Shown one piece after another: positions 32,751 to 48,706 of a stretch of DNA of 64,000 nucleotides. The notes under the pieces are model-generated. The model had not been told where the DNA came from and searched no databases. It saw nothing but the letters and a program-made list of their open reading frames with translations. Position 1 is the first letter of the stretch, and each line of letters opens with the position of its first letter. The position numbers and the translations under genes were made by a program. Location of the stretch: NCBI GenBank assembly GCA_000092065.1, contig CP000584.1; one strand, written 5' to 3'. The DNA is from Ostreococcus lucimarinus (lineage: Eukaryota).

Positions 32751-35700
32751 ATGTCGGACGTCGCGGCGCGATGCGCGGACGCCCTCGAGCGCGCCGCGCG
32801 CGGCGCCGAGGGCGCGCGCGCGCGCGCGGAGGCGGTCGAACTCGCGCGGGAGGTGCGACGCGACGACGCGACGCGACGAGACGCGACGACGACGCGACGA
32901 CGACGCGCGACGCGACGCGATCGGTGACTGACGATGGATCGATGACGCGCGATGGCGATGCGAAGCTGAAAACGGGCGACGCGCGACGAGCGATGGAGGC
33001 GTGTCGATCGCTGTGCGCGCGGGGACGCGGGCTCGAGGCGCGACACTTCGGCTTCGGCGTGCTGCGGGACGTGGCGCGGACGCGCTGGCGAGGGCTGACG
33101 GCGGAGGAGCGGATGGAGATGGCGAGCTTGGCGCACGGGATGCTGCTGGAGGTGAGCGCGGGAGACGCGGCGGAGGCGTACGCGGTGAAATCAAAGGCGG
33201 CGACGCTCGTGGCGGAGACGGTGCGGCAGGAGGGCGCGAGTCTGTGGACGAGGTTGGTGCCGGATTTGGTGAGCATGACGACGGGGGACGAGGCGCAGAG
33301 GGCGGAGATGGGGGTGAACGTCATACGGTACGTCGCGGAGGACGTGGCGGTGTATAACGAGGACATGATAGGTGGGAAGATGCGAGAGTTGTTGGGCGGG
33401 TTGTCGAGCACGGTGGGGACGATTTTGCCGGCGATTTACGCGCTGATGGAGAAGCATTACACCAAGGCGACCGCGGCGACGGATCGCGAGGTGGCGAAAA
33501 GGCACGCCGCGGCGGTGAATGCGGCGCTCGGGGCGGCTGCGGTGTACAGCGAGTGGGCTCCGTTGGCGCCAATCATGCGGAGCGGTTTGATCGAGGCGTG
33601 TGGGATGCTCTTGGTGCGTCTAGTTTTCTTCGCGCGCGCGTCTTTTTTTTCTTCGTCCAACACACGAACACGCACGACGCCGATGATGATAATCCAATAA
33701 GGATCAACCATCCGAACATCCCTATGTGGAATTTTTGCTAGTACTGTCCGAGGCGCGCGTGAACGACAAAGCGCCGGTGTGTTTGTTTTTTTTTGACTCT
33801 CGACTGACTCGCGCCGGACGTCACGAACCGCAGGCGAGCGATGAATTTCGTTGCGCGGCGTGCGATGCTTTGAGACACGTCGTCGCTCGCCGTGCCAACG
33901 TCGCGCAAGGCGTGGACGAGCAAGATGATCAGGATATCATCAAGGGTTTGACGCTCGCGGCGAACGCGATGTCCACGGCGGCGGAACGCGTGATTTCGCA
34001 CCCGAACCAAGCCGATCTCGTGAGCGATCCAGAAGAAGTCATGTTCATCAAGAGACTGGGTGAGACGATGGCATCGATGGCGGGGTACCATCTCAGCACG
34101 ATCACGGACGAGAGCACGCGTAACGTGTTCCTCGAGCGATTGATGGGGCTGTCGCGATTTCCTAGTTTGGAGGTTTTGGACGTCGTTATCGGCGCGTGGC
34201 CGGTGATGCTCCGCGCCATGGGTGCCGAGCTTCCCAAGACGTTCGTGCGAGGACCACCGTCGCAAGGAGTTAATAATCCATACAACGCGCAAAAGCTCGA
34301 GCCGAACGGGATTCTTCCCATGGGCGCTCCCGAGGTTTTGCTCGAAATCTCGCGCGTGTGGCTCAACGCCGGCGCGGGCATCGCCTCTGGGTTTGACACC
34401 AATGGTATTCCGGGTAATAAAGCGGAAGATTGGGCCGATGAATTCGAAAGCGTGGTAGAGCTTCGCGAGACGTGGGTGCAGCTTCGGGCGAAATGGATGG
34501 ACATCACCAAGTTGTGCACGGCGTTGTGTCCGAGCAGCGCGGCGAATCAAGCGTCGCAAAACACGCTGATGGTGATTTCGTGGACGCAACCAGGCGGACC
34601 TTTGGCGAATAGCTCGGATGAAACGAAATGCGCGGCTCTGGAGGGTGCGACGTCGTTTTTAGAAGCCATCATGGTCGCTCTTCCGACCGAGGGTCCGTCG
34701 TTTATGGGCTTCGCTAGCACGTTGGAGGCGCTCCTCGGCCAGCTCGTGGCGATTGACTTCAAGGCGCCGCTGAGCAACGCGCAGGTGTCCAAATTGCTCG
34801 AAACGTTCGGCAAGTTTGCCCGGGCGCGTCCAGAAGTGGCTCTGACGATAATGAGTCGACTTTTTACGATTTTGAATGAATTGCCCGCCGACGTACAATC
34901 TGGAGCGCCGCCGGTGCGGCAGCGCGACATCGTCGCGAGCGGGCGCACGGGCCAGGCGGCGAGACAAAAAGTGTGCGCGGCGATTCTCATAGTTTGTTCA
35001 GCGGCCCCAACGGTACGTCAATCGATGCGCTCGACTGATTTTCGACACCAAAGCGCCTCTTAGAAAACTTGACGAGCCTTTTCACTCGTTTCGATTTATG
35101 CTGGGGCGCGAAATAAATTCGCGAACGCGGCTCGAGCGCAGCCTCTTCGGCGGCTTCTCTTCGATTCGTGGTCGCCACATATTTTTGACGCGCGCGATTC
35201 GAGATTACATCGACTGACGGACAACGCGAACGTGTTTCACATCACGGCAACAGGCTTTGAACCCACATCTGGAGGCTTTTGCCTCTCAAATCGAAACCAT
35301 GAAATCTTCCGGACGACTGAGCGGCGCCGAGCGAGGTTCGCTCGCCGAGGCGCTCCTCGCGGTTGCTGGGCCGTCCGGCGCGCAGCGCGTGCGCGAAGTT
35401 CTCGAGTGGCTGCTGTCATCCGTCCGAAATAGATGGGTTCCTGGGGGTGCGCTCTCGCCAGAGGTTGAGCATCTGTTGGCCATTTCTACGATGGCGGCGG
35501 GCGAAGCCGCCGGCGGAACGCAAGGCTTGTCGTCGGCGCACTGGGAGCTGTTTCACGACGTACAACTCACCGAGCGTTGTCTTCGACGGAGTTTGGGTGA
35601 TGCGGAAACAGCTAAAGTACCGACAGGTTTGATGAAGCCCGTGGACCCACCGCCACCGATATCGGAATGTCCGGCAGTGGATCATATGGAATGGGCCGTC

Positions 35701-37044
35701 TCGCTCGTCTCGTGCTTGGCGCGAAGAATTCACTCGTACTGGACTCCGCAAGGGAGCGCGGCGATGCACAGTTGCCAATTAGGCGCGGCGCTTGGAATGA
35801 GCCCCGAAGAGAAGGCGGCGTATTTGATTCACGGTCCGGCGCGAACGCAAGTTCTCAACGAGGAAGAACCCGGGACGAGCACGACGGCGAGCGCGTCTCG
35901 CGATTGGATGCGATGCCTGCGCGATTGCTCGTACTCGGTCTTCGCGTTGTTCAGCATTCACGCTCCCGCGGCATTTTACCCGAACCAAGCCTTAGCGAGC
36001 GCGTGTGGTGGGTCTATGTTAGCTGATCTGCCGTACATGGAGCTCAGGCACGTTCGTCAAGTCGTGCACGCGGCGGTGCGACCGATCATGGGGCGGTGTC
36101 CGGCGGCGCATCGCGCGATGTGGCAGACGGCGCTCGTGAACCCGCTGTGCGCGGCGCTGCACGACCGCCTCGCCAAGGAATGGGCGAACACGCGCGTGGT
36201 GAACGCGACCAAGGCGCAAGAAAGAGGAGATGAAGACGACGAGACGGATGGCGTCGAGGTGAATGATTTGATTTCTGAACGAATTCTTCGCGACATCACG
36301 CGGGACCACTGCGCGATGCTCGCCATCGTCGCGGCTCCCGAAGGCACGTTCGGGCGCAAGACCAAAGGGAGTGGGTTGACTGGTGTCATGGGTGATATGT
36401 CAAACACGCTATTAGGGACATCGTACGCCGGAGGGAAACACATATTGGATTGGATCGCGCACGGTGACGCTAACGCGATTCGCGCCGGCATCGCCACGGG
36501 GGCCGCCGCGCTCACGTGGGAAGACGCGGAATCCACCGGCCACGCCGTGAACTTTGTGCGCGGGCTGTGTGCCGCCGCCGGGAGCGCGAACGCACCGCAA
36601 GCGTTGCGAGACAACGTCGGTTCAGATGTCTTCCAAGCCACCCTCGTGGCGCTGACGCAAAGCTCCAACGCCGCGCACCAAGCCGACATTCTCGGCTTGA
36701 TTCGCGACATCATCATTTGGCTCACCCCGAAGACGCAATCCGTGGTACAAATCTTGATGAGTCTTCCCGGAATGACGCAGCAAGCCCTCGATTCATGCGT
36801 GCGAGAGCTCGGTGCCATGCGAAGCGAGAAGAAAGCCGCTAATTTCGTCAAGGACTTCTTAATCAACGCCAGCGGAGGAGGAGAAGAGCTTCGCGCCCTC
36901 GTCGAGGCGCGTTCGCAAACCAACAAGAGCGGCGTCGCGATTCAAATACCGAAGACCGCCCCGCGAAATCCAGTGAAGCAATCGACGAGTCCGGACAATC
37001 ACGGTTTCTCCGCCGAGGCGGCGTCCAACGCGATCGGACTGTGA
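32751..37044 (+). CDS. XPO5: Exportin-5 / HASTY-like karyopherin, four exons: join(32751..32852, 32966..33613, 33834..35012, 35254..37044).
   Basis: Four track ORFs in different frames are connected by three introns. Intron 1 is 32853-32965 with a GTGCGA donor and a CTGAC branch near 32927. Intron 2 is 33614-33833 with GTGCGT and CTGAC near 33801. Intron 3 is 35013-35253 with GTACGT and CTGAC near 35213. All three are phase 0 with CAG acceptors. The spliced product is about 1239 aa, against 1204 aa for human XPO5. RHFGFGVLRDVARTRWRGLTAEERMEMASLAHGMLLEV aligns to XPO5 RHFGLQILEHVVKFRWNGMSRLEKVYLKNSVMELI. LIEACGMLL|ASDEFRCAACDALRHVVARR aligns to LLEILCLLL..LGAAECLLIAVSRKG. ATG at 32751. Confidence 0.75.
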
Positions 37045-37160
37045 GAACGTCCCGACGTTTCGTCCCGTCCCGCTCAGTCAACCGCCGTAGCGTTGTCGTA
37101 GACCCAACCGACTTAGACATCACTCTCGCGCGCGCCTCGATCGCTCGCCCGCGCGTAAAC

Positions 37161-38357
37161 ATGTGCGCCGCGCTCGACGCGTGCTCGACGTCCTACGCCA
37201 CCGGCGCGCGCGCGCCGCGCGCGCGTTCGCGCCGCCGCCAGCCGTCCTCTCGCGCCACCGCGCGCGCCTCGCGCGACGACGACGACGCGCCGAGGCGTCG
37301 GCACGCCCCGCCGCTTCCTCCGCTCGATCCTCGACCGCCGTTGATCACGCACTACGAAGCGCGGCGGTTGCTCGACGCGCGCGCGAACGGCGAGACGTCG
37401 TGCAAAGTCAGCTGGGATTTTCACTTTACGACGCCGAACGACGCGCGCGTGGACGCGCTCGGCGCGAGGGCGACGCTGGACGGCGACCGCGAGGTGTTCA
37501 TGGCTTGGGATGCGATCGAAACGATCGCGGGCGATGAGCGAGGGGTGTACGAGCCGGCCGATGAGGACGATTGGCTCGGAGGTGGGGCGCGCAAGGTGGT
37601 GACGTTTAGCGACGACACCGAACGAGCGGTTTCGTTGATGCCGAGCGGCGAGCGCACGTGGCCCACGGCGTTGATCGCGGGGTTTAGCATGCATAGGTTC
37701 GGCGTCGGCGTCGATCCGAAGGAAGACACGGAGAAAAAGTTGGGAGCGGTCGCGCCCATACGCAAGAATGCGCGATTGCTCGATATTTGCACGGGGTTGG
37801 CGTACACGTCGTGCATGGCGCACGCTCGAGGCGCCGACGTCACCACGATTGAACTCGATCGCACGATGACAAAGATGTGCAGAATGAACCCACATTCAAA
37901 AGCACTGTTTGAAGGCGAAATTGAGCAGTTGTACGGCAACGGTGCGGACGTCGTCAAGACGTTTGAAGACTCATGCTTTGACGTTATCATAACCGACCCG
38001 CCGACGTTTGCTCTCGCAGGCGAACTCTACTCTGCCGAATTCTACGCCGATCTCAAGCGCATCTTGCGCCCTAAAGGCAAACTGTACCACTATATTGGCG
38101 ATCCGAAGAGTGCGTCGGGTTCCGGCGTCGCCGCGGGCGTCGTCCGTCGTTTGAAGCAAGTCGGCTTTGACGCCGCCATCGACTACGACGCGCACGGCAT
38201 AGTCGCCGCCCACGACCGCGTTCGTCTCAACCGCACTTCCAAGGACAAGTCGCCGCGCAAGTCATCATCTAAATCTCGCGGTCGACGCGTCGACGACGCC
38301 TCCACGCGTCGTCCGCGCCGCGGTCGCCGTCCCGAGGACTTCGAAGACGACGAGTAG
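37161..38357 (+). CDS. Class-I SAM-dependent methyltransferase-fold protein with a spermidine-synthase (aminopropyltransferase)-like core and an N-terminal presequence.
   Basis: ATG at 37161; the upstream frame from 37041 overlaps the exportin stop. The core segment LLDICTGLAYTS...VTTIELDRTMTKMCRMNP...FDVIITDPPTFALAGELYSAEFYADLKRILRPKGKLYHYIG resembles PABS [32 protein letters not shown]. It lacks the canonical GGGDGG motif. The C-terminal tail is Lys/Arg-rich. Confidence 0.5.
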   Translation: MCAALDACSTSYATGARAPRARSRRRQPSSRATARASRDDDDAPRRRHAPPLPPLDPRPPLITHYEARRLLDARANGETSCKVSWDFHFTTPNDARVDALGARATLDGDREVFMAWDAIETIAGDERGVYEPADEDDWLGGGARKVVTFSDDTERAVSLMPSGERTWPTALIAGFSMHRFGVGVDPKEDTEKKLGAVAPIRKNARLLDICTGLAYTSCMAHARGADVTTIELDRTMTKMCRMNPHSKALFEGEIEQLYGNGADVVKTFEDSCFDVIITDPPTFALAGELYSAEFYADLKRILRPKGKLYHYIGDPKSASGSGVAAGVVRRLKQVGFDAAIDYDAHGIVAAHDRVRLNRTSKDKSPRKSSSKSRGRRVDDASTRRPRRGRRPEDFEDDE

Positions 38358-39432: not shown

Positions 39433-40349
39433 CGCCGCCGCGCCGCCGTCGATGTCGACCGTCTCGGAGTGCGCGACGCCAACCGTCGCGTCGAAAAAGG
39501 CGCAAAAAATCGCCTTTAAAAGGTCCGTGTTGCGATACGAATCGTCACGATTTTCCCGCCCGAAACGCACTTTTTTAAAAAGTGACGTTGACGCGAATCG
39601 ACGACGACGCGGCGTCGCCACGCGCGCGCGCGGAATCGAACGGGACGACGCGCTCGAGATGCACCGCGCCGCCATCGCGCTGACGTTCGCCGCGCCGTCG
39701 CCGCTCGCGCGACGACGCACGATCGACGCGACGCCCGCGGATGCGCCCGCGGCGGCGCAAAGACACATCGCGCAGACGAAACGACGCGGGGACGACGCGC
39801 GAGGACGCGCGGAATCGCTCGCCGCGAGCGAACGGCGGGACGCGATGACGGATGAATTGGTGGTGTACGCGCTGGATGAGTTCGGGGGGACGCGAAGGCG
39901 CGAACGACGACGACGAGGGACGCGGGAGGGGACGACGCGCGGGACGCTCGACGGTTTGAGCGCGCGGACGAGACGCGCGAGCGAAGAAAAGGCGACGCGC
40001 GTGATGACGTGGCGCGTGGGCGCGGAAGCGCACGCGCAGACGGCGACGTTGGGGTTGTTGACGACGCCGAGAACGCGCGCGGGGACGCGACGGTCGAACG
40101 CAAACTTGCGGGCGTTGTTCGACTAGACGGCGGGCGACAGCTGGCGAGACGTCGAATCGCGGGGAACGCGTCGACGTCCGATCGCGTCGACGTCCGATCG
40201 CGCGCGCGTCGGTGCGTGCGCTAGAAAACCTAATATGTATACAGCAACTGAATGGCTAGAATGTACTAGAATTTTGTCTCAATAAGAAAAAGGTACCGTA
40301 ACACCCCTCGCGGGTCTCGTCGCTCGAACGCCGCGCTTCGCGTCGCGAA

Positions 40350-41162
40350 TCAGACGATCACCTCTCCCGTCTCCTCGCGAATCACCGCCGCGATGTGCGC
40401 TTTCGAAACCGATCGATTCGACGGCGACGACGTCCACCGCGTGCCGTCGACCGCGCGCGCGTGCTCGAGGCGCGCCGTCGCTCGTCTCGCGACGTCCCTC
40501 GCGCGCGCCCTCGCCGCCGCCGCCAAAACTTTCCCCACGTCCGCGCGCACCCGCATTCCGCGCGCCATCCCTCGACTCACCACCGCTAATCTCGCGCGCA
40601 ATCGCGCCGCCGTGAGCGCTCCTCCCGTGGCGTCTCGACTCGCTTTCGATTCGCCCAGCGGCGCGCCCAGCGCCGTCCGCGTCTCGCTCGCCTTCCCCGC
40701 TCTCTCCGCCCGTCGGCTCCGTTTCTTCGTCACAACCGTCGCGAATCCGCTCCCGATCGCTCGTCGCACCGCGCCGCCATCGCTCGCGCGTCTCCGCGCG
40801 TCTTCGTTCGTCTTCGTCTCGCCCTCGTTCCCGCGTCGTCGTCCCGCGTCGTCCTCGTCCGCAGCCTCCGCGCCCGCTCGCGCCGCGCTCGCGCGCACCG
40901 CGCGCGCCAGCGTCTCCATCAGCGTCGCGTGCGTCGCCATCGCGCTCCGCGACGCGCCGAACGCGCGCGCCGCCTCGTCGTCGACGCGTTTCCGTCCGCG
41001 CGCGAACGTCTCCGCGCCCATTCGCTGCGCGTCGTCGCACGCCGCGCGCACCGCGCGCCAGTACGCCGCGAGGCACGCGCCGCGCGTCGCGTCGTCGAGT
41101 CGCGCGCGCAGGTCGACGAGCGCGTCGCGCGCGCGCGCGCGCGCGTCGGGCGGGCGCGACAT
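40350..41162 (-). CDS. Hypothetical protein (Ala/Arg-rich, 270 aa). Coding status is uncertain.
   Basis: ATG at 41162 (cat at 41160-41162). The translation reads more protein-like, with W, M, D, E and K, than the overlapping plus-strand Arg/Ser/Ala ORF. Its stop at 40350 is followed by an AT-rich island at 40225-40300, which is typical of 3' ends here. Both strands share third codon positions, so the high GC3 is not discriminating. Its ATG overlaps a plus-strand ATG at 41161 in the TVP38 frame. Confidence 0.3.
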   Translation of the reverse strand: MSRPPDARARARDALVDLRARLDDATRGACLAAYWRAVRAACDDAQRMGAETFARGRKRVDDEAARAFGASRSAMATHATLMETLARAVRASAARAGAEAADEDDAGRRRGNEGETKTNEDARRRASDGGAVRRAIGSGFATVVTKKRSRRAERAGKASETRTALGAPLGESKASRDATGGALTAARLRARLAVVSRGMARGMRVRADVGKVLAAAARARARDVARRATARLEHARAVDGTRWTSSPSNRSVSKAHIAAVIREETGEVIV

Positions 41163-41319
41163 GCCGAGACGCCGCGTCGGCGAGTCGCGACACTACGCGA
41201 CGCCGCGCGGCGCCCGCGTCTCCCGCGCGCGCGACGACCGCGTCCGAGGGTCCGCGCGAGCGCTCGCGCGCGCCTCGACCGCGCGCGCGTCGTCTCGGCG
41301 CGCGGGAGCCGCGCGCGCG

Positions 41320-42930
41320 ATGGCGCTGACGTCGACGCGCGCGACGACGACGACGACGACGACGACGGCGCGCGACGACGCGCGACGACGACGCGCGCGA
41401 ACGACGCGAAAAAACGCGACGCGCGCGTTTCCCGCGCCGAGGGACGACGACGCGGCGACGACGACGGCGACGACGGCGCGGACGCGGAATCGAGGGCGGG
41501 CGCGGGTGAACGCGGGCGACGCGCTGCGAGGCTTGTGGAGAGAGATTAAGTATAAACCGCTGAGAGAGGATGAATCGATCGAGGCGGTGGCGCTGATGGC
41601 GGCGCTTGAACTGGCGCGACGAGGACCCGAACCGGGGGAGACGTGGACCGCGGAGCGAGAGGAGATGCGAGCGCGGGCGCGGGCGTCGATTCCGAGCGCG
41701 GTGGGGACGTATTGGCGAGCGAGGAGCGAGGCGCTGATTGAAAGTCAAGCGGTGCGGGACGCGGCGCCGTTGATGTCGAGCGCGGTGAACGTGGCGATCG
41801 CGGGGGTGGTGCTGCGGTTGTTTTTGCCGCGCGTCGCGGCGCTGCAAGCGGTGGGTGGGTTCGACGAGTTGACTGAATTTTTTGGGTTGCCGCCGAGGAG
41901 CGAGTTGAGCGGATATTTGGATCAGTTGCGAGCGTTGCCCGTGGCGGCGGTGTTCGCGGTGTACGTTGGGTTGTTCGTGGCGGAAAAGTTGACGATGACG
42001 GATGAGTTTTTGCCGATCGGCTTCGTGCTGCCCGTGGTGTCGCCGGTGGTGTTCGGCGGCGTCTTCGGAGGGACGATGGTGACGTCGCTGGCGAGCACGC
42101 TGGCGGCGAGCGTCAATTTCTTCCTCGCGCGGTACGTGTTGAAGGATAAGATATTAGGCTTTAAGTGGGGCGAAAGTGATCCCGTGGGCGAGCAAAAGTG
42201 GTTCGCCGCGCTGAGTCGAAGATTCGACTCGTCGCAATTCCCCGAGTCCACGGTGCCCGAGGGGTTCAAGTCGGCGCTCTTGCTCAGGCTGTGCCCGATT
42301 TTACCGATTCCGATAAGTGGGAACTGGTACGTGTGCGGGCTGACGCCTCTCAAATTCAAAGAGTTCTTCGCCGCGCACTTCATCGGAAGCTCGAAGACTG
42401 CGTTCATCGACGCGTATTTAGGTTCAATTTTGCTCACCGCGGTGTTCGACGAGTCATCCGTCAAGGACCAGGCGCAAGGCGCGCTCGTGTTCGAAACCGT
42501 CGCCATCATGGTTGTTTCCATCTTAGTCAGCACGTACGCCACGGAGCTCTTCACGCAGATTCTCGACGAAGAAGGCGTCGACGCGGGGGCGATGATGGGA
42601 TTCGGTTCGGAATCCAAAGACGAAGACGAAGGCGAAGACGCCGTCGACGCCACCGTCGCCTTCATCGCCGCCGCCGCCCTGCCCGTGGAACCAGCCGGCT
42701 CCACGGCGACGAGCGATGATGAACCGAAAGCCGACGACGACGAGAACGACGACGACGCCACGTCGAACGAACCTGAACTCATCCCAATCGAGCGCATGCC
42801 CGAGGATGAAAAAGTTTTAATCGCCGAAGGCGAAGCGCTCTGGCGACGCGCCGCGCGCGTCGAAGCCGAGCGTCAAAAGCTCACCATCGAAGAGATGACC
42901 GATTACGACTCCATGGGACCAGACATGTGA
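41320..42930 (+). CDS. TVP38/TMEM64/DedA-family (SNARE-associated Golgi protein domain) membrane protein with an acidic C-terminal tail.
   Basis: ATG at 41320 (MALTSTRATTTTTTT). An alternative upstream ATG at 41161 would add an Arg/Ala/Ser presequence. The DedA/SNARE_assoc core is LLRLCPILPIPISGNWYVCGLTPLKFKEFFAAHFIGSSKTAFIDAYLG, with multiple TM helices. The C-terminus is Asp/Glu-rich. Confidence 0.7.
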   Translation: MALTSTRATTTTTTTTARDDARRRRARTTRKNATRAFPAPRDDDAATTTATTARTRNRGRARVNAGDALRGLWREIKYKPLREDESIEAVALMAALELARRGPEPGETWTAEREEMRARARASIPSAVGTYWRARSEALIESQAVRDAAPLMSSAVNVAIAGVVLRLFLPRVAALQAVGGFDELTEFFGLPPRSELSGYLDQLRALPVAAVFAVYVGLFVAEKLTMTDEFLPIGFVLPVVSPVVFGGVFGGTMVTSLASTLAASVNFFLARYVLKDKILGFKWGESDPVGEQKWFAALSRRFDSSQFPESTVPEGFKSALLLRLCPILPIPISGNWYVCGLTPLKFKEFFAAHFIGSSKTAFIDAYLGSILLTAVFDESSVKDQAQGALVFETVAIMVVSILVSTYATELFTQILDEEGVDAGAMMGFGSESKDEDEGEDAVDATVAFIAAAALPVEPAGSTATSDDEPKADDDENDDDATSNEPELIPIERMPEDEKVLIAEGEALWRRAARVEAERQKLTIEEMTDYDSMGPDM

Positions 42931-43034
42931 GTTGTTCGCGATCATTAGACACCACGCATTGTTTTAATCGCACCCATCCCATTCCCCTTTCGTTCGCGTC
43001 CCGCACACCGCGGCGGCCGGTACCGTCCGGCGTC

Positions 43035-43817
43035 ATGACCGACCCCACCGCGCGTCTCCGCGCCTTGGTCGAAAACGGCGTCGCCAAACGCTTCGACCTT
43101 CGCGCTTGGTCCGTGCAATCCGGCTGCGCGCGCGCGCGCGCGATCGAGCGCTTAGAGACGCTGCTCGAACAGGCGCGTCCCGACGTCATAAAGCTCATAG
43201 TCATGGAATCGCTTCAGGGGACGCCCGAGAGCGATCTAGACGTCATGGTGTACGGCGAGTGCGCGCCGCGCGCGTTTCTGGAGTTTATCAACGCGCACGC
43301 GCGGACGCTGGCGCTGGAACGCGCGGAAGAGGGAGATGAGACGCGACGCGGCGACGCGCGCGGGACGGCGTCGACGCGCGCGGCGCTGACGTATTACGAT
43401 TTAGGCAGCGGCGCGGGAAAATCCGTGCTCACCGCCGCGTTGTCACCGTATTTCGCGCGATGTCGTGGAATCGAGCTCTTGCCTTGCGTGCACGCGATCG
43501 CGGAAATTTTGGTGGAGGATTTCTCGCGAGACGTGGCGCCGCGAGACGACGGCGTCTCTCCGAGCGTCTCCGTCTCGCTCGGTGACATCTTCGTCGATCT
43601 CTCCTGGATCGACGCGGATTTCGTGTTTTGTAATTGCGTGACGTGGGACGAGGCGACGATGGCGCGATTGGCGTCGCACGCGGCGAAGATGCGACGCGGT
43701 GCTTTGTTCGTCACCGCGCTGTGTCCGCTGCCGAGCGACGCGTTCGAAGTCGTCGCCGAGGACGAGATCGATTTCAGCTGGGGGCGCGTCGACGCCATCG
43801 TCCACCGCAAGACGTAG
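43035..43817 (+). CDS. DOT1-like SAM-dependent methyltransferase domain protein.
   Basis: ATG at 43035; the track ORF from 42927 overlaps the upstream stop. Motif I [39 protein letters not shown] aligns to DOT1L [83 protein letters not shown] aligns to [48 protein letters not shown]. Confidence 0.6.
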   Translation: [260 protein letters not shown]

Positions 43818-44111: not shown

Positions 44112-44954
44112 ATGATGATGGTTCAAAGCGCGTCCACGCGCGTCCGAGCGCGCCCGAACGGCGTCGATCGACACCGCGCGACGCGTCGGACGCGCGTCGT
44201 TCGCGCCGCGGACGCCGGCGCGGATCGAGGGATGACGCGGGACGCGCGCGCGACGCGGGAGGTGGTGAGTCAACTGGGCGCGCGGCGAGACGCGAGCGCG
44301 CTGGCGCCGCGAACCGCGCACGGCGCCACGGTGGCGTACGTGCGGCAGCCGATCGAGGCGAAGAATGTGGAATTCATGACGCCGAACTTCGCGGTGTACG
44401 CGCTGTGTGGAGTGGGGTGCTTGTTGGGAAGCGCGCTGAGCGCGGTGCTGCTGAGTTTGATTCCGACGCTTCGAAGCGCGCGGCGAACGATGGATGAGAT
44501 TGCGTATCTCGCGGCGAGCGTGCGCGAGGAGGTGCCAGATACGCTCGCGGCGGTGCGTGTGAGTGGGTTGGAGCTCACGGACGTGATGGAGGAGGTTGGG
44601 GAACTGACGGCGGACGTCGGAGGAGGTTTGCGAAGCGCCGGACGCGGCATCACGGCGAGCGTGAACACGGCGCAGATGGTCGGGCGGTACGCGGCGGCGG
44701 CGGTTCCTGAGGTTCGAAGACGAGCGACACCGATCGTGGGATCGGTAAAGACTGGAACGGTGCGCGTGTTGGAGGAGCGCGCAGACATGGAACCGTACAG
44801 TGGACCCATCATATCGAACACGGCGAAGTCGGCGAAGAAGGGTGTGACGGCGGCGCGAAACGCTTTGAAATCTGCGGATGTGGCTCGAAACGTTGGTCGA
44901 TTATACAAGACGCTTCGCGCGCCGCCTGCGCGCCCAAAGGATATGCCAAAGTGA
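44112..44954 (+). CDS. Hypothetical organelle-targeted single-pass membrane protein; the helical region is DUF948-like.
   Basis: ATG at 44112. The N-terminus has an Arg/Ala/Thr-rich presequence. One TM helix is FAVYALCGVGCLLGSALSAVLLSLIP. It is followed by TLRSARRTMDEIAYLAASVREEVPDTLAAVRVSGLELTDVMEEVGELTADV, similar to bacterial DUF948 stress proteins. Length 280 aa. Confidence 0.45.
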   Translation: MMMVQSASTRVRARPNGVDRHRATRRTRVVRAADAGADRGMTRDARATREVVSQLGARRDASALAPRTAHGATVAYVRQPIEAKNVEFMTPNFAVYALCGVGCLLGSALSAVLLSLIPTLRSARRTMDEIAYLAASVREEVPDTLAAVRVSGLELTDVMEEVGELTADVGGGLRSAGRGITASVNTAQMVGRYAAAAVPEVRRRATPIVGSVKTGTVRVLEERADMEPYSGPIISNTAKSAKKGVTAARNALKSADVARNVGRLYKTLRAPPARPKDMPK

Positions 44955-45035: not shown

Positions 45036-48000
45036 TCAACGCGGCGACGAAGTCGCGGGCGTCGGAGACGCCGCGATGGCTTTGATCGCGTTGCCGCCAG
45101 AGAGGTCGCGCGCCAAGGATGGAAGCATCTCTTCGATCGGTCGAATACTGGGCAGCGCGCGCACGCTACCGCTGAGCGGAGAACCACCTCGATTGGCGTC
45201 GGCGAGCGGCTGACGAACCGCGCCGAAACCTCCGGCTGGTCGGTTGAGGAGCGCCGCCGTGGATCGTTGCTTTTCGAGCGCTTTTTGCATGTGCATGTCG
45301 CGCGTTTCCGTTTGTTCTCGTTCGAGCAGACGCGTTTTCTCGTCGAGATCGGCTTGCGTGTGTTGCAAGTCTTCCCATATCTTCTTCGTTTCTTCCCGTT
45401 GGCGATGCAACGTGTCCTTGTAACTCGCGATTTTATTCGTCGCTTGAATGTTCAATAACTCGAGATTACTGATCTTCTCGCGCGCTTCATCAAGTTTATT
45501 GCTTAACACTTGCATCTTGGCGTGCTCATCACTTACCGATTTCTCTAAGCGACTGACTTCACGGGAGAATTCTTCCGTCTTTGCGCGGAATTCCGTCGAG
45601 AGTGTCTCGTATGCCACGCGCGTCGTCGCCAACTCGTCTCGCATGCGAAGCTCGCGCGCTTGAGTTTCCTTGGCGGTTTCGTTGCTTCGAGACGCGTAAT
45701 CACGCGCGACTGACTCGGCGGCACGAGCGGACGCGGCTTCGCGTTCGGCTTCAGACATGTTCTTCAACATGTCCAAATACTTTTCGTTGTTCGCTTCCTC
45801 CTTTGAACGCGAGCGCTCAATCTCTGCCTTGGCGTACTCCACATCTTGCTTCCATTTTTCTTGCTGCAACGCCGTGGCCGTGAGCTCCGCCTTGAGTGCA
45901 GACATTTCTTTCTCCACTTGCACGAGCTGATCCGCCTTTTCTTCCAGTGCCTTGGATCGACCTTCCAAAGTGCCGTGCTCCTTCACGAGCGCTTCGTTTT
46001 GGCGTCGGAGATCTTGAAGTTCGGCGCGCGCCTCTCGCTCGCGTTCTTCCGCGGACTTTGCGGCAGCGGTGAACGCGGTGATTTCCATTTGGAACGACTT
46101 TGCCTCGGTTTCGCGCTGCACGAGCGCCTTTTCAGACGTAATGAGTTGCACCTTGGTGGCTTCTTCGCAACGCTGCGCGTCGTGCATCTTTTCGAGCGCC
46201 TCCTCGCGAGCGGCGGCGGCGTTTTCGAGCGCAACCTTGGACGCGGCGAGTTGCTTGTTGGAGTCTTCCAATTTCGCCTTCAAAGCAACCAGAGACATGT
46301 TGGACTTTTCCTTGGCGTCTCGCATGCTCTCACGCTCAGATTGCACCGCCTGCAGAGCGGCGGCGCTCGTCTCCTTGGCGTCGACGACAGCGCTCTCGAG
46401 TTCTTTGCGCTCTCGCGCAAAGTTTGCCCTGTCCTCATCTCTTTGTAATTTCGCCTCGCTCAACTTGCTGAACGCCTCTTCGAACTTCGATTGTAGCGTA
46501 GCCGTGGCCACGGCCGCTGCCTCACGCTGAGTACGAAGGTTGTCGACTTCGCTCTGGAGTTCGTCGCATTTAGCCGACTTGGCGTCGAGCTCGCGACGCA
46601 ACAAACTCTCGCGATGGTTGAGTTCGGCAGACTTCGTCTTCGTCACGTCTTCTTTTTCGGCACGCAACGTAGCGATTTGATTCTTCGCTTCGTCGTACTT
46701 GGCTTTCAAAGTCGCCACGTGAGCGCCCGACGATTCTCGCGTGGTACGCAACGCGGCGATTTCGGCTTCGAGCGCCTCAATCTTCGTCACCTTGTTTTCT
46801 AAGGCGCTCTTAAGCTCCGTTTCGCGACGATGAACCTCGTGCGACGCGGTTTCAATATGGTTTTCTTTATCTTCTCGCGCGGTCTTCAGGGCATTCTTCA
46901 CCTCTTCATATTTGACTTGAAGCTTGGCGGACGAAACGGTCTTGTCGTTGAGATTGGCGCGAAGCGCATCCACTTGCGCTTGGAGCGCCTTGACTTCGGC
47001 GGCTTGAGTCTCCAAATCCGACTTCACTCGCATCATCTCCGCAGCGTCGTTCGAAATATTTGAGTCGCTCGACGGCTTCGCCATCGTTCGCTCTTCTTGC
47101 ACCGCCGCTCGAAGCTCGGCGATTTCATTCATCGCGTCGTCGTACTTGCTTCGCAACGTCGCCGAATCCTCCACCTTCTTGTTGAGTCGTCCACGAAGCG
47201 CCTCGACGTGCGCCTTGAGCGATTCAATTTCTGTGATTTTGACACTCATTTCGGCATCGGTGGCGGTGCGCGTTGAGCGCGCCTCGTTCGAAGCCTCGAG
47301 CGCGGCGATGTGCTTCATGGCCTCTTCGTACTTGTTTTGAAGCTTTTCGAGATTCGCAGAAGAGTCTTCGCGCTTGGATCGGAAACCTTCGAGCTCAGCC
47401 TCGAGTTCGCACACGCGACGAGATTCCTTCGCCGAAACTTCCGAGAACTTCGTGAGCTGCGATTCGAGCTGACCGAGCTCGATGACGAGTTTGGACTTTT
47501 CGCTGACGAGCGCGTCGCGTTGATCCCGCAACTCGCTCGCCGAGCGTCGTGCCTTTTCATTCTCCGCCTTCATCTGCGCCTTATCTTCTTGCCACATCTC
47601 CTTGAACTTACTCACCTCTTCGCTCAACTCGTTGATCGTCGTGTTCTTTTCTTCTAAAAGATCGTCAATCTTCTTATCGAACGAGGCTTCCATGTCCGCG
47701 AACTTCTTCTCCGCCGCGCGACGCGCCGCCATCGCCGCCGACGCCTTGCTTCGAAGGCTTTCGCACTCCTCCTCGTAATCGCGAACTTGGCACACAAGTT
47801 TTTTCTTTTGCCTCTCCATGCGCTCTTCGTTCTCGCGCAAGACTTCAATCTCCACGATTTGATCGCGCTCGCGCGCCTCGGCGCGTTTCGTCTTTTCCCG
47901 TTCGGCGCGCAATTCGTCGTTGAGGGCGTTGAACTTTTCCTGACTCGCGCTCATCGCCTCTTGACGTTTGCGCCCTCGCGCCATGATCAACTCCGTCCGC

Positions 48001-48566
48001 AACGCCCGCGCGTGATTCAACTTCTCCACCGTCTCCCGCGTCCACTCCGCCTCCATGAGCGCCTTCACGCTCGACGGAAAGTAAAACCCCCCAAACCACA
48101 TCGAGCTCCCGTCTCGCATCGTCAGCGCCACCCCGCTCTCGCCCCATCCCTCGCTCCTCACCTCGATCCGCTCGATCTCTTTATACGCAATCTTCAGCGA
48201 TATCGGTTTCCCGCTCGATCGCCGCTTCGAGGGCGAGAACAACAGCCCGTCCCGCCTCGTCGCGTCGCTCGTCTCGCAATAAAAGCACGCGTGCCCGCTC
48301 GTGACGTACAAATCCCCCGTCCCGCTCGCGATCGGTCCGCCCAGATGCGCCCGGTACGTCTCCACCACCGTCTCGCTCGCGTTCAGCGAGAACAGCGCCC
48401 AGACGCCGCCCTTCGCGCGCGACGCGCGCCCGTCGTCCTTTCGTTTCTTGTGGCGCTGCGCCCAGCCCCGCATCTTCGCCTGGCACGCGATGACGCATCG
48501 TTTCTGGTGGTCCGTCAGCGATTCGTAGCGTTCCTCGACCGCGAGCAGGTCGCGCGCGGACACCAT
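45036..48566 (-). CDS. GRAM-domain protein with a roughly 1000-residue coiled-coil rod containing internal repeats.
   Basis: The in-frame Met (MVSARDLL) lies about 69 nt below the track start at 48635, which is TTG. The GRAM-like block is LYVTSGHACFYCETSDATRRDGLLFSPSK...ISLKIAYKEIERIEVRSEGWGESGVALTMRDGSSMWFGGFYFPSSVKAL. A long heptad-rich region carries recurring units such as ATLRSKYDDAMNEIAELRA, AKLQVKYEEVKNALKTARE and ATLKAKYDEAKNQIATLRA. Confidence 0.7.
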   Translation of the reverse strand: MVSARDLLAVEERYESLTDHQKRCVIACQAKMRGWAQRHKKRKDDGRASRAKGGVWALFSLNASETVVETYRAHLGGPIASGTGDLYVTSGHACFYCETSDATRRDGLLFSPSKRRSSGKPISLKIAYKEIERIEVRSEGWGESGVALTMRDGSSMWFGGFYFPSSVKALMEAEWTRETVEKLNHARALRTELIMARGRKRQEAMSASQEKFNALNDELRAEREKTKRAEARERDQIVEIEVLRENEERMERQKKKLVCQVRDYEEECESLRSKASAAMAARRAAEKKFADMEASFDKKIDDLLEEKNTTINELSEEVSKFKEMWQEDKAQMKAENEKARRSASELRDQRDALVSEKSKLVIELGQLESQLTKFSEVSAKESRRVCELEAELEGFRSKREDSSANLEKLQNKYEEAMKHIAALEASNEARSTRTATDAEMSVKITEIESLKAHVEALRGRLNKKVEDSATLRSKYDDAMNEIAELRAAVQEERTMAKPSSDSNISNDAAEMMRVKSDLETQAAEVKALQAQVDALRANLNDKTVSSAKLQVKYEEVKNALKTAREDKENHIETASHEVHRRETELKSALENKVTKIEALEAEIAALRTTRESSGAHVATLKAKYDEAKNQIATLRAEKEDVTKTKSAELNHRESLLRRELDAKSAKCDELQSEVDNLRTQREAAAVATATLQSKFEEAFSKLSEAKLQRDEDRANFARERKELESAVVDAKETSAAALQAVQSERESMRDAKEKSNMSLVALKAKLEDSNKQLAASKVALENAAAAREEALEKMHDAQRCEEATKVQLITSEKALVQRETEAKSFQMEITAFTAAAKSAEEREREARAELQDLRRQNEALVKEHGTLEGRSKALEEKADQLVQVEKEMSALKAELTATALQQEKWKQDVEYAKAEIERSRSKEEANNEKYLDMLKNMSEAEREAASARAAESVARDYASRSNETAKETQARELRMRDELATTRVAYETLSTEFRAKTEEFSREVSRLEKSVSDEHAKMQVLSNKLDEAREKISNLELLNIQATNKIASYKDTLHRQREETKKIWEDLQHTQADLDEKTRLLEREQTETRDMHMQKALEKQRSTAALLNRPAGGFGAVRQPLADANRGGSPLSGSVRALPSIRPIEEMLPSLARDLSGGNAIKAIAASPTPATSSPR

Positions 48567-48706
48567 CGTCGTCGTGTGCGCGCGTTCGCCGTTCGTCGTC
48601 GCGCGCGTCGCGCCGTGACGCGTCGCGAATCGCAATCGTCAACCGTGCACGCATTCGTCGCCGCGGTGTCGGTTTGGATCGTTCCCCTCGTCGCGCGTGC
48701 CTACTT

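Follow-up and report, generated by a model that had tools for sequence, protein, structure and literature searches.

The window analysed here is a 64,000-nucleotide stretch of Ostreococcus lucimarinus DNA (contig CP000584.1). The subject of this report is a DOT1-like gene on its forward strand, an uninterrupted, intron-less open reading frame (ORF) of 260 codons that runs from an ATG at 43035 to a TAG stop at 43815-43817. A sequence-only reading had described the interval 43035-43817 as a compact DOT1-like enzyme of roughly 260 amino acids in a putative green-lineage genome, and the ORF list and translation bear out both the boundaries and the length. The encoded protein is a member of the DOT1 superfamily, i.e. 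a class-I (seven-beta-strand) S-adenosylmethionine (SAM)-dependent methyltransferase, and it belongs to the short, catalytic-domain-only DOT1 branch that is typified by LpDot1 of Legionella pneumophila.

A constrained nuclear gene of a green alga

The six-frame list also contains a longer version of the gene, which initiates at a GTG at 42927, carries an in-frame extension (42927-43034) and encodes 296 amino acids; this form is the one present in the Logan/JGI/ENA metagenome catalogues (P0001 and many cluster members). Since the upstream gene ends at 42930 (stop codon 42928-42930, inside which the GTG extension starts) and all orthologues begin at the ATG position, 43035 is the real start. The 296-amino-acid model, whose extension is missing from the orthologues, was rejected as an artefact that prokaryotic gene callers produce on eukaryotic DNA. 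An N-terminal transit or signal peptide was likewise rejected, by inspection alone, the N-terminus being conserved and helical with acidic residues.

Full-length, collinear orthologues with the same motifs are found in Ostreococcus tauri (CEF97459.1 / XP_022838705.1 / A0A090M5T6; 62% identity) and in Micromonas pusilla (XP_003057711.1 / C1MQ81; 51% identity), and identity ranges from 50 to 66% across Ostreococcus, Micromonas and Bathycoccus-like sequences. An Ostreococcus orthologue is represented by an MMETSP transcript, and the run-style accession ERR1712216 ('merc' source) holds a fragment with 98% identity. The window has a GC content of about 60% and densely packed ORFs, and the DOT1-like gene lies in GC-matched DNA among eukaryotic neighbours that encode Exportin-5, an ankyrin-repeat protein, a VTT-domain membrane protein, a GRAM/coiled-coil protein, a DEAD-box helicase and an Alg9-like mannosyltransferase. 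The local order of VTT-domain gene, DOT1-like gene, an ORF of ~220-280 amino acids and a coiled-coil gene of ~1160-1200 amino acids on the opposite strand is common to the window, a 99%-identical Logan contig and O. tauri-like contigs; in Micromonas contigs, the VTT-domain gene is located about 3 kb upstream of the DOT1-like gene.

A phylogeny with bacterial and protist relatives had been suggested together with the original assignment. In the neighbour-joining (NJ) tree calculated here, which is descriptive and contains human DOT1L as the single canonical outgroup, the window protein groups with Ostreococcus (bootstrap 93), then with Micromonas (75) and next with other marine-protist sequences including a Picozoa protein (74). 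This Mamiellales/marine-protist clade is sister to a mixed bacterial-eukaryote group, and human DOT1L is found on a long branch. Nei-Gojobori (NG86) estimates of nonsynonymous and synonymous divergence gave dN 0.31 and dS 1.03 against the O. tauri-like gene and dN 0.40 and dS 1.05 against the Micromonas gene, corresponding to dN/dS ratios (omega) of about 0.30-0.38, or at most about 0.3-0.4, with saturated synonymous sites. Compared with positions 1970-2749 of the 99%-identical Logan contig (L001), the coding positions 43035-43814 contain three nucleotide differences, none of them synonymous by the NG86 estimate (dS = 0), and two of the amino-acid changes are located in a poorly conserved N-terminal segment (around residues 27-30, SVQSG vs SAQSS).

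The eukaryotic neighbours, the orthologues, the conserved synteny, the tree topology and the low omega therefore show that the DOT1-like gene is a nuclear gene of an Ostreococcus-type (Mamiellales) green alga that has been passed on vertically and under constraint, in line with the green-lineage host that had been suspected. A prasinovirus or giant-virus origin was considered and rejected, as a scan of viral contigs gave one weak 28% match.

DOT1 fold, family and catalytic residues

At E <= 10, the window protein matches a single Pfam family, DOT1 (PF08123; E 1.4e-5, residues 119-227), with 25.2 bits at a gathering cut-off of 23 bits, and the family assignment lies well beyond chance; an NCBIfam scan returned noise only (E about 0.08). 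A best match to a different class-I methyltransferase family with no DOT1 match, which the sequence-only reading had named as the finding that would speak against it, was not obtained. A first homologue search yielded 43 relatives, the majority of which are already annotated with PF08123, and all 24 family members of alignment A1 match this model (best E 1.4e-20). When the A1 profile was compared with all PDB sequences, 9NE1 scored at 9.6e-43, fifteen human DOT1L constructs at about 2e-13, yeast Dot1p at 1e-11 and the best non-DOT1 methyltransferase at 1.2e-4. PDB entry 9NE1 corresponds to LpDot1 (lpp3025): the code is given in the LpDot1 paper, and the loops RDAIEYVYGE and INSSTL quoted there are found in the matched chain. 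A phmmer search with the window protein returned no DOT1L at E <= 10, i.e. this relationship is seen with profiles only. The AlphaFold2 (AF2) model of the protein has a predicted local distance difference test score (pLDDT) of 84 and a predicted template modelling score (pTM) of 0.79, and its fold is closest to solved DOT1 structures.

Residues were mapped onto human DOT1L by a MAFFT alignment of 47 sequences, comprising DOT1L 99-339 (in full agreement with the PDB chain, 100% identity), LpDot1, the window protein and 44 relatives (Table 1). Motif I (DxGxGxG), D1 (YGE) and D2 (FxN) are all present in DOT1 order, and the SAM-binding residues as well as the equivalents of DOT1L N241 and W305 are conserved. 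The motif I stretch (residues 119-135) and the distal block that had been quoted for this ORF are both present, the latter with LGDIF at residues 182-186 and the D2 stretch at 193-204, and MRRGALFV is also found; the final aromatic residue of D2 is Trp, not Phe as had been stated. Within A1, D195, V197 and N200 are near-invariant. In the gate loop, Tyr and Glu are invariant and Gly nearly so, both in the 47-sequence alignment and in A1, and residues 69-71 have a pLDDT below 50 in the AF2 model. Residues ~1-35 are conserved in the Mamiellales/marine-protist clade only; bacterial relatives have a different N-terminus, which is hydrophobic in a Coxiellaceae member (P0040).

Table 1. Coordinates of the DOT1-like gene and its elements in the window, and equivalents of selected DOT1L residues
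Feature	Position	Strand	Basis
DOT1-like coding sequence, 260 amino acids plus TAG	43035..43817	+	ORF list; sole Pfam match DOT1; full-length collinear orthologue alignment; AF2 model
N-terminal helical region, residues 1-62	43035..43220	+	alignments; AF2 helices 4-14, 22-28, 36-60, pLDDT 55-85
D1/gate-loop motif Y73-G74-E75 (DOT1L Y136-G137-E138)	43251..43259	+	alignments
Motif I, D122-L-G-S-G-A-G-K129, SAM binding (D122/G124/G126 = DOT1L D161, G163, G165)	43398..43421	+	alignments, profile
Post-I motif G145-I-E147-L-L-P150 (E147 = DOT1L E186, SAM ribose ligand)	43467..43484	+	E147 invariant
G183-D184-I-F186 (D184 = DOT1L D222, adenine ligand)	43581..43592	+	alignments
D2 block D195-F-V-F-C-N200-C-V-T-W204 (N200 = DOT1L catalytic N241)	43617..43646	+	residue map
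C-terminal beta-hairpin F247-S-W249-G ... A254 ... T260	43773..43814	+	residue map; model strands 237-247, 250-259
DOT1L F239: conserved (F198)			residue map
DOT1L N242/F243: Cys/Val			residue map
DOT1L W305: conserved (W249)			residue map
DOT1L Y312: Ala (A254), Ala in LpDot1 too			residue map
DOT1L 280-295, including the R282 arginine anchor: 16-residue gap			residue map
DOT1L helix 319-331: no counterpart, protein stops at T260 right after the last beta-strand			residue map, model

The window protein thus has the DOT1 Pfam family, the class-I fold, the SAM-binding residues and the N241 and W305 equivalents in common with Dot1p/DOT1L (KMT4), but it differs from these enzymes in the elements that engage the nucleosome. 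It contains neither the acidic-patch loop (DOT1L 273-286, with R278 and R282), the R278 position being occupied by Glu, nor the helix 319-331, which in DOT1L contacts H2A/H2B and ubiquitin. Of the residue set that lines the lysine channel and orients H3 in DOT1L (F131, N241, W305, Y312), two are kept as N200 and W249 and two are substituted, by L68 upstream in the gate loop and by A254; N242 and F243 are also replaced. Furthermore, the window protein is acidic rather than basic, with an isoelectric point (pI) of 4.9, 29 K+R vs 40 D+E and a net charge of about -11, and the Mamiellales orthologues have pI values of 4.5-5.1. It has no K/R-rich tail or other accessory regions, and no basic surface for nucleosome or DNA binding is indicated by pI and charge, which serve as a proxy for such a surface.

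LpDot1 has the DOT1 catalytic fold but is inactive on calf-thymus histones and recombinant H3, and it methylates nuclear-extract proteins, notably SFPQ at K518 (bioRxiv 10.64898/2026.01.11.698932). Neither loop 273-286 nor helix 319-331 of DOT1L, both of which are needed for nucleosome binding, is present in LpDot1, which also has Ala at the F131 position and displays a near-neutral surface (bioRxiv 10.64898/2026.01.11.698932). Like LpDot1, the window protein is a single-domain protein of about 230-260 amino acids with the YGE, DxGxGxGK, E, D, FxN and SWG elements; in the alignment, its nucleosome loop is deleted, its C-terminal helix is missing, and it has Ala at the Y312 position and a non-aromatic residue at F131. 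Judged from its sequence, it appears to have in common with LpDot1 all the characteristics by which the lack of histone activity was explained in the LpDot1 study. However, the two proteins are only about 25% identical, their D2 blocks differ (FCNCVTW in the window, FINSSTL in LpDot1), and the algal clade has its own conserved N-terminal extension of ~35 residues and a variable charged insert (residues ~92-117). In contrast to LpDot1, which is a secreted bacterial effector, the algal protein is encoded by an endogenous nuclear gene.

The short family is large. An exhaustive profile search returned 8,635 cluster representatives at E <= 1e-3, 3,745 at E <= 1e-10 and 594 at E <= 1e-30, and among the matches listed, short-family representatives are mostly 190-350 amino acids long. 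Named eukaryotic members include Achlya (oomycete), Epipyxis (chrysophyte), Picozoa and MMETSP transcripts, and short catalytic-domain-only homologues have been described in ciliates, Acanthamoeba and a volvocine alga (bioRxiv 10.64898/2026.01.11.698932). A scan of GTDB species genomes identified 307 bacterial loci, mainly in Legionella, Coxiellaceae, Berkiella and other Legionellales together with many Patescibacteria, and a Parachlamydiaceae member was also found. This spread agrees with a published tree in which Legionella, eukaryote and virus DOT1-like sequences are mixed and from which its authors proposed recurrent transfer between domains (PMC10117894). Short DOT1-like genes are common in Patescibacteria, also known as the candidate phyla radiation (Roizmanbacteria, Pacebacteria, Parcubacteria, Peribacteria, Microgenomates; e.g. 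L022, L024, L035, L054), and hence reach beyond the amoeba-associated Legionellales and Chlamydiae. Two distant relatives from ENA metagenomes, P0039 (394 amino acids) and P0043 (313 amino acids), contain an insertion of ~150 residues in the methyltransferase core, which follows the post-I region and precedes the GDF motif.

Probable lysine methylation and substrate

Based on its conserved residues, the window protein is best read as an active, SAM-binding-competent methyltransferase. In the proposed mechanism, SAM would be held by motif I (D122-G128), by E147 at the ribose and by D184 at the adenine, while the substrate lysine would pass into a channel between the Y73-G-E75 gate loop, N200 and W249, where it would be N-methylated. 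Because every DOT1L nucleosome-docking element is absent and the protein is acidic, and by analogy with LpDot1, which acts on SFPQ and other RNA-binding nuclear proteins, we consider it somewhat more probable than all other options combined that the enzyme methylates lysine in a soluble, non-nucleosomal protein rather than nucleosomal H3K79. The earlier wording, which allowed for either a histone or a non-histone DOT1-like enzyme, was apt, and the evidence now leans towards the non-histone side.

Several points weigh against a non-histone substrate, and they coincide in part with those that favour the main alternative, namely that the protein is the alga's own H3K79 methyltransferase, a minimal Dot1 that recognises the nucleosome or free H3 by surfaces other than those of DOT1L. 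The only biochemically characterised member of the short branch is bacterial LpDot1 and not a eukaryotic protein, and its substrate preference may not transfer, because identity is ~25% and LpDot1 is a secreted bacterial effector. The absences of the loop and the helix are read from the MAFFT alignment and a predicted model, and N200 and W249, whose counterparts flank the lysine channel in DOT1L, are conserved. DOT1 is also the sole family match, and the orthologues carry histone-methylation labels, though automatic ones. Compactness alone is no bar to histone activity: the compact kinetoplastid enzymes DOT1A/B of trypanosomes methylate nucleosomal H3K76. The bacterial DOT1-like protein Rv2067c of M. 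tuberculosis is reported to trimethylate H3K79 on non-nucleosomal H3 (PMC10739865). Nonetheless, an algal H3K79 writer appears unlikely. The protein has neither the acidic-patch loop that contains R282 nor a C-terminal helix, it has other residues in place of F131 and Y312, its net charge is negative, and by profile E-value the family is ~30 orders of magnitude nearer to histone-inactive LpDot1 than to DOT1L/Dot1p. PDB chains of ~257 amino acids that are labelled H3K79-specific match weakly (8fjm, E 5e-4; 37bg, E 3e-3).

That only a DOT1-like Rossmann core was retained for a non-protein substrate, such as RNA, a lipid or a small molecule, is less probable still. Conservation goes beyond the generic core and extends to DOT1-specific elements, namely the YGE gate loop, FxN block and C-terminal SWG hairpin. 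Among characterised proteins, the closest relative methylates protein lysines, and generic methyltransferase profiles match at least 1e8-fold more weakly than DOT1. The abundance of intracellular and host-associated bacteria in the wider family (the 307 GTDB loci and the Parachlamydiaceae member) and the interdomain transfers proposed for it (PMC10117894) might raise the suspicion that the ORF is a bacterial contaminant, a recent horizontal acquisition or a decaying pseudogene, i.e. not a functional algal gene. This is highly improbable in view of the eukaryotic, GC-matched surroundings, the synteny kept in O. tauri-like contigs and in part in Micromonas, the intact ORF with all catalytic motifs and a dN/dS below 0.4, the branching with other eukaryote sequences and the transcript of an Ostreococcus orthologue. 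Lysine methylation of a soluble protein remains our preferred reading.

The surprise implied by a DOT1-like gene in a green-lineage genome is weaker than first suggested, because the labels of its orthologues are public (NCBI, UniProt) and the short family has already been described in protists and intracellular bacteria. The DOT1 annotation of the family is not new either, since the O. tauri ('Histone methylation DOT1') and M. pusilla ('Histone-lysine N-methyltransferase, H3 lysine-79 specific' for C1MQ81) orthologues already carry it by automatic Pfam/InterPro transfer; the 'H3K79-specific' name is probably an over-annotation. A literature search found no study devoted to DOT1 of Ostreococcus or green algae, and surveys of chromatin-gene evolution treat DOT1 broadly without singling out the short Mamiellales clade. 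The gene says nothing on land plants and leaves the view that they lack DOT1 unchanged; in other respects it is a regular member of a family that has already been annotated automatically.

What is known of DOT1 enzymes concerns almost entirely their role as the H3K79 writer, and picoplanktonic green algae keep a little-studied short-branch DOT1 under purifying selection. A bolder proposal, to which we give a rather low chance, is that the Mamiellales protein represents the endogenous eukaryotic function of the short branch, a non-histone lysine methyltransferase for e.g. RNA-binding or splicing proteins that was later borrowed by Legionella and other intracellular bacteria, or else a minimal H3K79 writer that is independent of ubiquitin and the acidic patch and would be the sole DOT1-type histone methyltransferase of the green lineage. 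If true, either version would provide a tractable model for a DOT1 branch of no known eukaryotic cellular role; O. tauri supports gene targeting. The algal substrate, once found, would reveal the native eukaryotic role of the short branch and settle the 'H3 lysine-79 specific' label.

Neighbouring loci

Directly downstream of the DOT1-like gene, a 280-amino-acid ORF (44112-44954, forward strand; 229 or 220 amino acids in related contigs) has no Pfam match, and its position is kept in Ostreococcus contigs. It is followed on the reverse strand (45036-48635) by a 1199-amino-acid protein with a borderline N-terminal GRAM match (22.9 bits at a cut-off of 23.6) and about 900 amino acids of coiled coil, which occupies the same place beside the DOT1-like gene in O. 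tauri-like contigs (1163 amino acids). Upstream, the VTT-domain ORF (40393-42930) contains a poly-Thr run in its N-terminal part, and its Pfam match covers the C-terminal ~470 amino acids only (from ~41515). The highest GC content observed is found at 40279-41900 (70.6% for the bin 40001-42000), where both strands carry long Arg/Ala-rich ORFs that overlap. A second class-I methyltransferase-like ORF of 438 amino acids (37041-38357, forward strand), about 5 kb upstream of the DOT1-like gene and unrelated to DOT1, shows weak Methyltransf_11, Spermine_synth and MTS matches. The Exportin-5 match in ORF 35257-37044 (forward strand) is limited to model positions 301-820, and ORF 33726-35063 on the same strand may represent the N-terminal part of this protein, in which case the two ORFs would have to be separated by an intron or a frame change.
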